From: Patescibacteria group bacterium
GTDB lineage: Bacteria; Patescibacteriota; Patescibacteriia; UBA9934
NCBI GenBank assembly: GCA_041660165.1
Contig: JBAZWW010000002.1
Coordinates: 43,290 to 107,289 of the forward strand
Direction of reading: 5' to 3'
Length of the DNA: 64,000 nt
Positions within the stretch are counted from its first letter, which is position 1, and each line of letters opens with the position of its first letter. The notes under the pieces are model-generated. The model made no database searches and had not been told where the DNA came from. It worked only from the letters and a program-made list of their open reading frames with translations. Below, one piece after another: positions 5,838 through 8,433 of this stretch. The position numbers and the translations under genes are program-made.

Positions 5838-6272
5838 TCAGCACGCCATCTGTCTAATCTTCCAAAACCTCGGCAATTTAGCCTCTTTCATCCGTTTGGC
5901 TACTCGATCAATATCCTCAAATGGCACCGAATGGACGTTTCGCATGGCCCCGACGGACACTTCGCAGTGAAAGTTCAGGATTTCAACGGTATAGCCTAGC
6001 GCTTGGCCGAGCATGACATAGGGAGAGATTTCCCAGGCTTCCGCGTTCATGTTGTCTATGATCACCGGCGAGTCTCCTTGGTGAAGTGCTTCGTGGCATT
6101 TATTAAAGCAAAAAGCATGCGCTTCCTGGATTTTCGAACGATCGTACGCATACGTTCCGTCTGGTTGCAGAAAGAAATCATCAGCCGAGCAGATGAGGGC
6201 GTCAGGGACAGCTTTGGCATACGTGGATTTACCAGCGCCTTGGATTCCGCGGAGAATTTGGAGGGATTTCAT
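5838..6272 (-). CDS. P-loop NTPase, polynucleotide-kinase-like / AAA_33-like kinase
   Basis: Walker A GIQGAGKST follows a short beta-strand, and the size is about 144 aa. The start is set at MKSLQIL; the longer upstream extension runs into the palindromic element. Confidence 0.6.
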   Translation of the reverse strand: MKSLQILRGIQGAGKSTYAKAVPDALICSADDFFLQPDGTYAYDRSKIQEAHAFCFNKCHEALHQGDSPVIIDNMNAEAWEISPYVMLGQALGYTVEILNFHCEVSVGAMRNVHSVPFEDIDRVAKRMKEAKLPRFWKIRQMAC

Positions 6273-6293
6273 ATAGGGTATTGTAACGTACGT

Positions 6294-6367
6294 TGTCATC
6301 CCGAGTGCAACGAGGGATCTGATTGGCCAATCAGATCCCTCGGCCGTCGGACGGCCTCGGGATGACA
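6294..6367. repeat. nested palindromic element (full-length form)
   Basis: TGTCATCCCGAG...CGAGGGATCTGATTGGCCAATCAGATCCCTCG...GGCCGTCGGACGGCCTCGGGATGACA. The outer 12-bp arms and an inner perfect 28-bp palindrome are both present. Confidence 0.75.
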
Positions 6368-6380
6368 CGAACTATGAAGG

Positions 6381-6402
6381 TCCTTCGCCTACGCTCAGGA
6401 TC
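6381..6402 (-). repeat. palindromic repeat family copy (reverse orientation)
   Basis: TCCTTCGCCTACGCTCAGGATC is identical over 24 nt to the copy at 57247. Confidence 0.7.
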
Positions 6403-6439
6403 TATCGCGCATTGCAACTCTACGGTAAACTGCTCACGT

Positions 6440-7285
6440 ATGCACCTCGACTTGACCAAGACCATTCTCCTCTGCCCAAAGAATGACGAAGAATCCGTGC
6501 TTATTTTGCAAATTGCCAAATCGGCAGGGATTCCAACGGTGGTTTCGCCCCAAGAACATGGCGCAAAACTCGAACTTGAGAAAGACCTTGAAGAACGCTT
6601 GAAAAAAGCGAATCCGCAGGCTTCGACTATTGTTATCGTTGAAACCCCCGGGCCGGAACGCGAGCAAGAACTCGAAAAAGCTGGTTACGAGGTGATCATT
6701 ATTGACCATCATCGGTATGAGGGTTTGAATCGGATGAAGCAAGAAAGTTCGCTCGACCAATTCTTGGTGCTGTTCGAGTTGGATGATGCGAAACTAGAAG
6801 AGCTCGGCTTTGATCCTTTTTTGGTCAAAGGCATTGGTATGATGGACCGCGGTTGGGTATGGGAGCTGGCTAAGGAGGGGATTGAAAAAGCTGATCGCAA
6901 GCGAATCATGGATTACTACCAGTCATTACTCGAGGATATGGGGGGTTTGAAAACGGGGGATGTTGAGTCAGCCCGGACGGCTTGGGACGGCAGGGAAGTG
7001 CGGGACGGCGTGATTATTGTGCGCTCAACGTCGAATGACCCCGCTGTTCATATCCGCCAGGCATTATCGAGTATTCTGGCTGAGAATTTCGATGAGCCAC
7101 CTGTTACACTCGTGGTTGAGGGGAATGGACGAATCGCAGTCCAGGATACGGACAAGGCTACAAAGCTTCATGAAAAGTTTGGCGGGTATGTCTTTGGCAA
7201 GGATCTCTGTTGGGGCTTTGCGCCAACTGTCGAGAGACCCGCGCCGAGCGTAGGGAGTATATTGAAGGTATTAGTGTCAGCTTAA
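6440..7285 (+). CDS. hypothetical protein with an IIIDHH motif
   Basis: 282-aa ORF with the start placed after the repeats. Only a DHH tripeptide is recognisable, so no confident family. Confidence 0.45.
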   Translation: MHLDLTKTILLCPKNDEESVLILQIAKSAGIPTVVSPQEHGAKLELEKDLEERLKKANPQASTIVIVETPGPEREQELEKAGYEVIIIDHHRYEGLNRMKQESSLDQFLVLFELDDAKLEELGFDPFLVKGIGMMDRGWVWELAKEGIEKADRKRIMDYYQSLLEDMGGLKTGDVESARTAWDGREVRDGVIIVRSTSNDPAVHIRQALSSILAENFDEPPVTLVVEGNGRIAVQDTDKATKLHEKFGGYVFGKDLCWGFAPTVERPAPSVGSILKVLVSA

Positions 7286-7292
7286 ACGACGT

Positions 7293-7371
7293 TGTCATCT
7301 CGAGCAGAGCGAGAGATCTGATTGGCCGGCCAATTCAGATCTCTCGGCCGTCAGACGGCCTCGAGATGACA
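7293..7371. repeat. nested palindromic element (second full-length copy)
   Basis: GTCATCTCGAG...GAGAGATCTGATTGGCCGGCCAATTCAGATCTCTC...GGCCGTCAGACGGCCTCGAGATGAC, about 85 percent identical to 6294..6367. Confidence 0.75.
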
Positions 7372-8433
7372 ATTATGATTGGGATAACAACAACTATGTC
7401 TTTGCAGAACTCGACAATTCCACTGGATCGCATTTTCCTCCTCAGCTGGATTGAGCAGTCTGTTTTGTCGTCTTCGGCGGGGGATAAGGCAAAGGATGTT
7501 GTGGCCGAGCTCGCTCAGAAACTGCCGGAGATCAAAAAGTTAGTAGAGACCCCGCAAAGTCCTCCGCATCATGCGGAAGGGCCAACGGTAGAGAGCCACG
7601 TTGTGAGAATGTTGGCGGTCCTGCTGGCGTTGACGGACGAAGCACCGGCCGTCATGTTTGAAGAATTTGCGCGCGAGAAGGATTTGGTTTTCGAGTGGGC
7701 CTCGATGCTCGAAACGATCCGTTCCCATAAAGCGTTTCTTTCGGCCTATGCCGTTCTGCATGACATAGGGAAGCCCGAATGTCTGAAGCTCGATGCCGAC
7801 CAGCGCGTGCATTATCCCGGTCACGATCGTGCTGGCGCGGGCCAGCCGTATGCATACGCGAGAGATGCGGTCATGCGATATTTCGAGTTGCCAGTTTCAA
7901 GCTCGAAAATGATGACAGAGCTGATTCGCCTGCACATGGATGTGTTAACGGTGTTTGCCAAGTCCGCTGACGTTCAACAATTTATGGCTTTTTCTGCGCT
8001 GGCCGGCCGGGCTGGCGTGAATAAGGACGTATTCCTTGATCTTGTTCCAGCCTGCTTATTTTTGGATGGCGTGGCCGGCAGTTTGCATAGCAATCCCTTG
8101 GAAAACTCGAAACCATCGCATGACCTGGCTCCGCTCATCCACTGGTATCGGGCGGAACGTGAGGTCATGCCGGAGAGGCATAATGTTCGGGAACTAAACG
8201 CCGGCAAGGGCGCAAAGCTGGCGCTCAAGAAAGCGTATGCTTCCGTTGGACTTTCCCCGGAAGCCGTGTTTGAGCTCCTTGGTACGCCCATCGGGCCAGT
8301 GCGAGGCGAGATTATGCGTTCTATTCAGGAACTGGTCGAAGATCCCGCCAGCAAGGTAGACTTTGGCGAGCATACAAAGGAGATTAGAGGTAGAGCTGAG
8401 AAAGCAAGAGTTATTCTATCGTCCCCATCCTGA
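7366..8433 (+). CDS. HD-domain phosphohydrolase
   Basis: H...HD signature (ESHVVRML ... LHDIGKP). The start is placed at the ATG just after the palindromic element. Confidence 0.55.
   Translation: MTIMIGITTTMSLQNSTIPLDRIFLLSWIEQSVLSSSAGDKAKDVVAELAQKLPEIKKLVETPQSPPHHAEGPTVESHVVRMLAVLLALTDEAPAVMFEEFAREKDLVFEWASMLETIRSHKAFLSAYAVLHDIGKPECLKLDADQRVHYPGHDRAGAGQPYAYARDAVMRYFELPVSSSKMMTELIRLHMDVLTVFAKSADVQQFMAFSALAGRAGVNKDVFLDLVPACLFLDGVAGSLHSNPLENSKPSHDLAPLIHWYRAEREVMPERHNVRELNAGKGAKLALKKAYASVGLSPEAVFELLGTPIGPVRGEIMRSIQELVEDPASKVDFGEHTKEIRGRAEKARVILSSPS

Follow-up and report, generated by a model that had tools for sequence, protein, structure and literature searches.

Two nested palindromes flank the middle gene of a small cluster in a 257-kb Patescibacteria contig (JBAZWW010000002.1), and their placement raises the question of whether they form a control site shared by the genes around them or are repeats that have settled between these genes. 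The stretch analysed here, hereafter the window, comprises 64,000 nt (64 kb), and the cluster encodes a small P-loop kinase on the minus strand, followed by plus-strand genes for a DHH-family phosphoesterase and an HD-fold protein, and by ruvA. A first-pass annotation had suggested that the palindromes could be a common operator coordinating the kinase, DHH and HD genes. We present evidence that both elements are, very probably, inverted dimers of a CGTC/TGTC-tagged repeat of the REP (repetitive extragenic palindrome) type, a non-coding, non-autonomous mobile repeat that was recently inserted into short spacers of the conserved kinase-DHH-HD-ruvA cluster. Selfish DNA, in place of a control site common to these genes, is the most likely nature of the elements.

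Both elements lie where the first-pass annotation had placed them, at 6294-6367 (74 nt; element 1) and 7293-7371 (79 nt; element 2), and the identity of about 85 percent that it gave was recovered over the aligned columns with flanks (85%), falling to 80% for the elements alone. The outer arms of each element are perfect over 12-13 bp (TGTCATCCCGAG/CTCGGGATGACA at 6294-6305/6356-6367 in element 1, and TGTCATCTCGAG/CTCGAGATGACA at 7293-7304/7360-7371 in element 2). The inner palindrome of element 1, CGAGGGATCTGATTGG/CCAATCAGATCCCTCG, occupies 6311-6342, and a short GGCCGTCNGACGGCC stem-loop is present in each element. As single strands both fold into a three-way junction, with energies of -52.8 kcal/mol for element 1 and -51.0 kcal/mol for element 2 that none of 200 dinucleotide shuffles matched in either case (z -8.3 and -7.7, respectively). 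At all four related positions, CCC/GGG in the first copy is replaced by CTC/GAG in the second as paired changes, and their occurrence at all four positions, not two, first pointed to an element composed of a smaller repeated unit. The 12-nt outer arm, which the annotation had called X, is not itself enriched in the window, where 8 matches with at most 2 mismatches were found against 5.3 expected, and the only real matches in the window are the four arms of elements 1 and 2.

A search for AT-YYY-GAG...CGA-RRR-AT with complementary triplets recovered both left halves of the elements, the right halves on the opposite strand, and more copies in the window. The unit so defined is 21-29 nt long and consists, in order, of a TGTC tag that stays unpaired, a stem of 5 bp (AT-YYY/RRR-AT), a tandem G.A/A.G mismatch, at least 2 further pairs, and a loop of 3-4 nt. 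The stem of all units reads AT-YYY...RRR-AT, opening with A-T and then T-A, the tandem mismatch is a conserved 5'-GA/5'-GA of the sheared type, and TGTC also precedes those units that were retrieved by a pattern without a TGTC requirement. Both elements begin with the TGTC tag and carry GACA on the opposite arms (Table 1). The nested arrangement of the first-pass annotation (X-Y...Y'-X') corresponds to two such units in opposite orientation, each arm being half of a unit that is also present elsewhere in the window. The linker between the units is self-complementary (CTGATTGG/CCAATCAG). In the right-hand unit, a GCCGTCNGACGGC mini-hairpin enlarges the loop. Many copies outside the window carry the core GAGCGNAGCGA, which contains a GCGNAGC/GCGNNAGC mini-hairpin, a structure that is unusually stable as DNA (PMC13037366).

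The stem of the unit covaries. In two scans of sequence collections, for which the Y/R classes were fixed in the pattern and complementarity was left free, full complementarity between YYY and RRR was seen in 137 of 150 matches in one scan, against a shuffle mean of 43.7 and a maximum of 66, and in 38 of 39 matches in the other, against a shuffle mean of 10.7. In copies from L020 and L004 the two halves differ in their triplets, with the result that the long-range arms mismatch and each half is a perfect local hairpin. This covariation within the unit fits selection on, or generation of, an intrastrand hairpin, and not a palindrome bound by protein as duplex DNA.

Ten perfect units are present in the window against 0.27 expected from Markov simulations, and the 64 kb hold at least 12 units in all, about 5 as dimers (Table 1). 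The repeat unit is thus multi-copy and is dispersed in spacers as well as in in-frame coding sequence. In the isoleucyl-tRNA synthetase gene (IleRS; 455-3421) the inserted copy encodes the peptide QSLSVSEGPTGRRDYAMSGPSKREERSGGGGGLAQDGG, which is missing from orthologs at 91-92% identity. The unit at 43729-43750, nearly identical to the IleRS unit, is translated in frame as QSPSVGEGPRGG within an 886-aa protein (42421-45081) that may, by its appearance, be another class-I aminoacyl-tRNA synthetase. The single unit that shares the kinase/DHH spacer with dimer 1 (6380-6401) is 86% identical over 35 nt to a copy at 57246-57280. The single units at 3415-3460, 6378-6412 and 57235-57280 have a longer consensus of about 35-40 nt in common, with GATCCTGAGCGYAGGCGAAGGATCYAGAGGTGGGCTATYGG at two of the sites, and by this criterion they are a putative sub-family with a conserved 3' extension.

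Relatives of the cluster were located through the middle (DHH) protein, which has only 25 homologs, all within this Patescibacteria clade. The gene order in these relatives is IleRS, a variable stretch, kinase (minus strand), DHH, HD, ruvA and femAB. Conservation of the neighbourhood, proposed as a check on the first-pass annotation, was borne out: kinase, DHH and HD are syntenic in L004, L005, L011 and L013, and all relatives whose sequence suffices for a judgement keep DHH and HD in synteny, including the more distant L007 and L008, from which the kinase is missing. The same spacers in close relatives are without the element. In L013, whose DHH protein is 82% identical, the spacers measure 23 nt (kinase-DHH) and 19 nt and contain neither element; the kinase-DHH spacer is 61 nt in L004 and 19 nt in L005, with the element in neither, and the DHH-HD gap is 4 nt in L004, an overlap in L005, 24 nt in L007 and 1 nt in L008. 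By comparison, the divergent kinase-DHH spacer of the window is 167 nt, against 19-61 nt in the relatives and 19-23 nt in the closest two. The last approximately 20 nt before the DHH start in the window are still similar to the L004 and L013 spacers; dimer 1 and the single unit, with about 145 nt of sequence that contains the repeats, have therefore been added to a once-short spacer. Judged by these spacers, both elements are lineage-specific insertions, and the kinase, DHH and HD genes were neighbours already when the elements came in. In L011 and L012 (87% identity) both spacers hold other, unrelated palindromes. The DHH/HD spacer of L011 (2894-2993), like that of L012, carries a different palindrome of about 100 nt with arms of CAGGTNT heptamers, and it seems that more than one kind of palindrome tends to insert into this spacer.

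These observations bear directly on the operator proposal, under which a dimeric regulator would bind the 28-bp inner palindrome and co-regulate the kinase, DHH and HD genes. The proposal draws on the presence of two similar palindromes around the middle gene, one of them in a divergent spacer, and on the window copies being marginally each other's closest relatives. Yet the relatives keep the three genes with spacers that lack the elements (L004, L005, L007, L008 and L013) or hold other palindromes (L011 and L012), and the covariation tracks intrastrand hairpins in each half, not a duplex recognition sequence. Additionally, no promoter-like site overlaps the elements, neither a sigma-70-like promoter nor an intrinsic terminator having been found within either of them, and no regulator gene is evident beside the cluster. 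Since the palindrome core also occurs at unrelated loci and within open reading frames (ORFs), the operator idea is left unsupported, and we regard it as very improbable. For this locus, the reading of the palindromes as insertions removes a tempting regulatory story.

The synteny of the relatives also speaks to a second alternative, in which the palindromes would be recombination sites (integron attC-like or of another site-specific system) around a mobile cassette consisting of the DHH gene. Two palindromes in direct orientation do flank exactly one gene, and two independent Logan contigs begin within element 2. Against this, the DHH gene is syntenic with HD and ruvA in all relatives, whether the elements are present or not, no RYYYAAC/GTTRRRY core sites are found, and no integrase lies nearby. 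The attC/integron cassette is ruled out by the synteny and the absent core sites, and the chance that any such cassette system is at work here is close to nil. The two Logan assemblies (L002 and L003) begin at one base within element 2, corresponding to 7297 of the window, and this break could reflect the repeat, the hairpin or strain variation.

The elements also bear on where the flanking genes begin. The first-pass annotation had placed each element immediately upstream of a plus-strand gene start, at 6440 and 7366; the former stands (P0001), and the latter gives way to 7396, the start in the NCBI model (P0026, 345 aa) and at the N-terminus of the L004 ortholog. The ATG at 7366 falls within the right arm of element 2, and at both copies the right-arm ATG (6362 and 7366) is in frame with the downstream ORF. 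Because the orthologs and the NCBI models start at 6440 and 7396, we treat this ATG as incidental.

Table 1. Repeat copies and cluster genes in the window (positions are those of the 64-kb stretch).
Feature	Position	Strand	Remarks
REP-type inverted dimer 1	6294..6367	.	tag TGTC 6294-6297; left unit 6298-6318 (+)
Dimer 1 linker	6319-6334		palindromic; CTGATTGGCCAATCAG
Dimer 1 right unit	6335-6363	-	loop expanded to GCCGTCCGACGGC mini-hairpin; tag GACA 6364-6367
REP-type inverted dimer 2	7293..7371	.	tag 7293-7296; left unit 7297-7317 (+)
Dimer 2 linker	7318-7338		5 nt longer than dimer 1 linker
Dimer 2 right unit	7339-7367	-	tag 7368-7371; all four stem triplets CTC/GAG (dimer 1: CCC/GGG)
Single unit	6380..6401	-	ATCCTGAGCGTAGGCGAAGGAC; one stem mismatch; kinase/DHH spacer, shared with dimer 1
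Degenerate dimer, same superfamily	8425..8510	.	overlaps HD stop codon and fills HD/ruvA spacer; left unit 8427-8447
Degenerate dimer in IleRS	2771..2884	+	unit at 2774; in-frame, 34-aa net insertion Q773-G810
Single unit	3421..3442	+	IleRS/SET-gene spacer
Single unit	15983..16004	+	intergenic spacer
In-frame unit	43729..43750	+	within 886-aa ORF 42421-45081
Dimer	55830..55901	.	intergenic spacer
Single unit	57248..57269	-	25-nt spacer between two + strand genes
Dimer	59467..59535	.	spacer downstream of ORF 58650-59456
P-loop kinase, polynucleotide-kinase type (AAA_33)	5838..6272	-	144 aa
DHH/DHHA1-fold phosphoesterase, NrN/NrnA-like	6440..7285	+	281 aa
HD-fold metal-dependent phosphohydrolase-like protein	7396..8433	+	345 aa

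The repeat is not confined to the window. When metagenomes were scanned for GTCATYYYGAG...CGARRRATCTGATTGG, the signature of the subfamily, 39 loci with single units and dimers were obtained. The closest of these outside copies are 65-78% identical to the window copies (75-78% in L020 and L024, 65-74% in L039) and have the linker in common with them, and the L039 copy also has the GCCGTCAGAC loop expansion. In other Patescibacteria contigs, copies of this GATCTGATTGG subfamily lie within a helicase-like ORF (L020), within a 606-aa ORF (L024), and between unrelated adjacent ORFs (L039); another copy, in L035, which stands outside the identity comparison, lies between two ORFs that we read, by eye, as tsaE/tsaD-like. 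The 26-nt core TGTCATYYYGAGCGNAGCGARRRATC was found in at least 120 stretches of species-representative genomes and spans well over 20 bacterial lineages. Its hosts among the matches listed include Acidobacteriota, Chloroflexota/Dehalococcoidia, Nitrospirota, Planctomycetota, Bacteroidota, Firmicutes, several Proteobacteria, Saccharibacteria, Uhrbacteria, Gracilibacteria, Omnitrophica, Verrucomicrobia, Fibrobacter and one metagenome-assembled genome of Nanoarchaeota. At least 120 stretches of predicted viral contigs in IMG/VR contain the core as well, some of them with 3-4 copies; one hairpin core is thus common to very distant phyla and to viral contigs. The genome loci include 25 strict dimers, and most units fall into short spacers when placed on a crude map of ORFs.

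The prevalence of single units weighs on another reading, that of a classical MITE (a miniature transposable element with inverted repeats), namely a deletion derivative of a DDE insertion sequence that has TG...CA terminal inverted repeats (TGTCATC...GATGACA) and moves by cut-and-paste. The perfect terminal inverted repeats of 12-13 bp, which start with TG and end with CA, would suit such an element, as would the size of 74-79 bp. However, single units, which would be half-elements, occur as often as dimers, the covariation of the arms is with internal segments instead of between the two arms, and no full-length insertion sequence with these ends was seen in the fetched loci. Moreover, MITEs are recognized by terminal repeats of 15-30 bp together with a target-site duplication, whereas the arms here are shorter than this and neither copy shows a direct repeat at its flanks. 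A MITE origin is therefore improbable. A transposon bounded by distant pairs of units (L073 and L122) was also considered and rejected, the intervening DNA containing housekeeping-looking genes, with PhaC-, MnmG- and ParA-like ORFs, as judged by eye, among them.

Known repeat families were then compared with the unit. Rfam contains no family that matched either element, whether at the gathering threshold or at E values up to 10. Our search of the literature on palindromic repeats and MITEs found no report that mentions Patescibacteria, a search with words of the repeat sequence also found nothing, and RepRanger 2025 and Quentin 2018 added nothing on the TGTC-hairpin motif. The REPINs or bacterial interspersed mosaic elements formed by GTAG REPs in Gammaproteobacteria resemble the window dimers in that two inverted imperfect hairpins make up a larger hairpin, and they resemble the repeat in being intergenic and non-autonomous and in having a conserved unpaired tag at the hairpin foot; their tag is GTAG (or GTGG), whereas that of the present repeat is TGTC. 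REPIN systems and their RAYT transposases are mostly inherited vertically within lineages, unlike the core described here, which is near-identical across phyla. Identity with GTAG REPs or REPINs was rejected on account of the wrong tag and because no RAYT-like gene was seen in the window, in the fetched loci or, with a crude probe, in 1.29 Mb of flanking DNA. Rickettsia palindromic elements (RPE) parallel the IleRS copy, being palindromic repeats translated as an extra peptide in an essential enzyme, but they have another host clade and another consensus, and elements 1 and 2 are intergenic.

A fuller set of likenesses links the unit to the CGTC-tagged REP superfamily that Di Nocera, De Gregorio and Rocco described in 2013 (PMC3733652). 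In their account, the tag is often TGTC and also CCTC, the stems open with A-T and T-A, inverted dimers predominate, some copies occur in frame within genes, and a transposase has not been linked to them; tRNA synthetases are among the listed REP targets, with the tag type unspecified, and members of the superfamily include Neisseria dRS3 and Rickettsia conorii RPE-4 and RPE-6 (PMC3733652). The window unit agrees with this account in its unpaired TGTC-type tag, A-T/T-A stem opening, inverted-dimer habit, dispersal in spacers with some in-frame intragenic copies, and span of several phyla.

Several points weigh against the view that elements 1 and 2 are mobile dimers of this superfamily. The four published CGTC families, compared by stem and loop dimensions, have perfect stems of 8-9 bp and loops of 4-5 nt (PMC3733652), whereas the stem of the present unit consists of 5 bp, the G.A/A.G mismatch and at least 2 bp, with a loop of 3-4 nt; the expanded mini-hairpin loop of the right units in the window again falls outside the published loop lengths. 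The window contains only two copies of the exact subfamily, which lie 1 kb apart and are marginally each other's closest (80% against 75-78%), leaving room for local duplication, gene conversion, or a local role acquired after insertion. The spacers of the relatives are too diverged for an exact empty site or target-site duplication to be defined, and we infer mobility from the distribution of the copies. Finally, a crude tblastn search with IS200 and IS608 TnpA probes found no Y1/HUH transposase, either in the window or in the 1.29 Mb of DNA that flanks units; because the probes are weak, this result is no proof that a transposase is absent. Since the conserved G.A tandem occupies two of the 9 stem positions, we file the repeat as a further family of the CGTC superfamily that belongs to none of the four. 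Its hosts (Patescibacteria, Acidobacteriota, Chloroflexota, Firmicutes, Nanoarchaeota and viral contigs) extend well beyond the five phyla of the 2013 list. The two elements are ordinary in kind. The family, which has probably not yet been described and appears to be undescribed in this form, is remarkably widespread, and any real novelty would lie there.

By analogy with REP/RAYT and IS200/IS605 chemistry, the repeat would spread via a single-stranded DNA hairpin intermediate, and this hairpin would be handled by an enzyme supplied in trans, as RAYT transposases are thought to handle GTAG REPs and REPINs. Effects on the flanking genes would probably be by-products of insertion: dimer 2 sets a hairpin of -51 kcal/mol 24 nt before the HD start, in a gene pair that is coupled elsewhere, and dimer 1 and the single unit push the divergent kinase and DHH genes apart. 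Such effects might nevertheless matter at the RNA level, a reading compatible with a mobile origin, in which the inserted hairpins would serve as cis elements (3'-exonuclease barriers, processing sites or translation dampers) and would uncouple expression of DHH and HD, as REPs do in some E. coli operons. The very stable folds and the position of dimer 2 within a gene pair that is tightly coupled in the relatives are in keeping with this, as is the report that REPs are transcribed and act as RNA elements downstream of genes (PMC3733652). On the other hand, where single units lie between co-directional genes, neither orientation is favoured with respect to transcription (24 sense, 18 antisense), and the G.A tandem is stable on one strand only, yet both orientations are found. 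We consider an RNA-level role possible, if on balance unlikely.

The movement of CGTC-type REPs has awaited an explanation since 2013, and a small, unit-dense genome offers a convenient place to seek the enzyme. The copies described here place a REP-type family in the reduced genomes of Patescibacteria; the window contains about one unit per 5 kb, and some copies are translated in essential enzymes. When ORFs within 1.5 kb of units were clustered, those that recurred beside units encoded phage structural proteins, which came from viral contigs related to each other, or belonged to a small GIY-YIG family. The GIY-YIG genes (about 95-110 aa) lie 12-100 nt from units in L075 (6272-6598), L040 (211-489), L138 (4095-4421) and L018 (3078-3350), and that of L138 is bracketed by two units. 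Among 41 viral loci chosen by the GIY-YIG protein, none has a unit within 1.5 kb; the link is thus not general (0/41), and the GIY-YIG protein was set aside as the mobiliser, leaving a weak lead. The near-identical 26-nt core in distant lineages, together with the failure to find a transposase gene beside it, suggests a broader idea, which we put forward as speculative and rather improbable: the TGTC hairpin with its tandem G.A (core TGTCAT-YYY-GAGCGNAGCGA-RRR-ATC) might constitute an undescribed REP family across bacteria, DPANN archaea and phages that is copied or maintained by a universally conserved host function acting on single-stranded DNA mini-hairpins, or that is ferried between phyla by viruses. 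If true, this would differ from dependence on a lineage-specific RAYT-like enzyme, and elements 1 and 2 would be recent products of the process in a Patescibacteria genome of roughly 1 Mb.

The genes between which the dimers lie form a conserved trio in their own right. The kinase contains the P-loop GIQGAGKST, as the first-pass annotation had noted, and matched PF13671 (AAA_33) with an E value of 1.9e-10 in a hidden Markov model (HMM) search. Its invariant residues (G12, G14, K15, S16 and T17; S29, A30 and D31; D73, N74 and N76; and R111) make up the P-loop, SAD(D) and DN(M/T)N motifs and R111. The proposed Pnk-type assignment is supported by a family-profile search of the PDB, which matched the kinase domain of Clostridium thermocellum Pnkp (4gp7/4jst), Pnkp1 (4xrp), T4 Pnk (1ly1/1ltq) and mammalian PNKP (3u7g, 3zvl) at E values of 1.5e-6 to 5.6e-4; the profile also matches L-seryl-tRNA(Sec) kinase (E 2.3e-6). 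Nucleoside and nucleotide kinases appeared only at E 0.02 or worse, and the outcome that the first-pass annotation had named as refuting its view (a match to a nucleotide or shikimate kinase together with no conserved neighbourhood) did not come about.

The middle protein had been credited with a DHH tripeptide only, and its AlphaFold model (pLDDT, the predicted local distance difference test score, 93.3) instead predicts a complete DHH/DHHA1 fold. D89, H90 and H91 are invariant in the family, and the Pfam DHH model scored below threshold in the HMM search (18.1 against 28.1 bits). A Foldseek comparison returned NrN (9lqa) first (E 3.6e-10, template modeling score 0.63-0.70), followed by pAp phosphatase, RecJ and PggH. 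NrN is a DHH-family phosphodiesterase that degrades the CRISPR signal SAM-AMP (PMC10600005). Around the DHH gene, neither CRISPR nor CorA genes were noticed, though NrN, the nearest structure, degrades this type III signal. The third protein has the HD fold that had been assigned to it, with an invariant H..HD..H..H..D pattern, and its nearest fold is that of the C-terminal part, with the HD domain, of a tRNA nucleotidyltransferase. Sequence-profile searches of the PDB for the DHH and HD families returned nothing, and both families are placed by fold comparison only.

The three genes recall end-healing enzymes such as C. thermocellum Pnkp and T4 Pnk in the kinase profile and in the HD-fold protein and DHH phosphoesterase encoded alongside. 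Runella HD-Pnk is a bacterial RNA/DNA end-healing enzyme; in contrast to this fused protein, the genes of the window are small and separate, with the kinase on the opposite strand. As far as tested, they do not appear to be a split form of it. No ligase or Hen1 partner is present beside the trio. From their sequences the three genes may act in end healing, and nanoRNA turnover and signal-nucleotide turnover are open candidates as well. The conserved Pnk-like kinase, NrN-like DHH and HD trio beside ruvA is thus a candidate module for nucleic-acid end processing or for degradation of nucleotide signals in this clade.

Three further features of the window were observed. Just 3' of the kinase gene, at 5777-5833, lies another nested palindrome, in which GGATAGCCTAAAA...TTTTGGGCTATCC enclose ATCCGACTT..AAGTCGGAT; a T-run follows it, and this is probably a terminator. 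The RNase P RNA (23026-23553, minus strand) is 528 nt long, compared with a model of 367 positions. Two expansions, of about 65 and 80 nt, are present, but the RNA contains no repeat unit. Bacteria normally decode AUA by a lysidine-modified CAU tRNA, and the window contains, at 35885-35961, an uncommon tRNA-Ile gene with the anticodon UAU.

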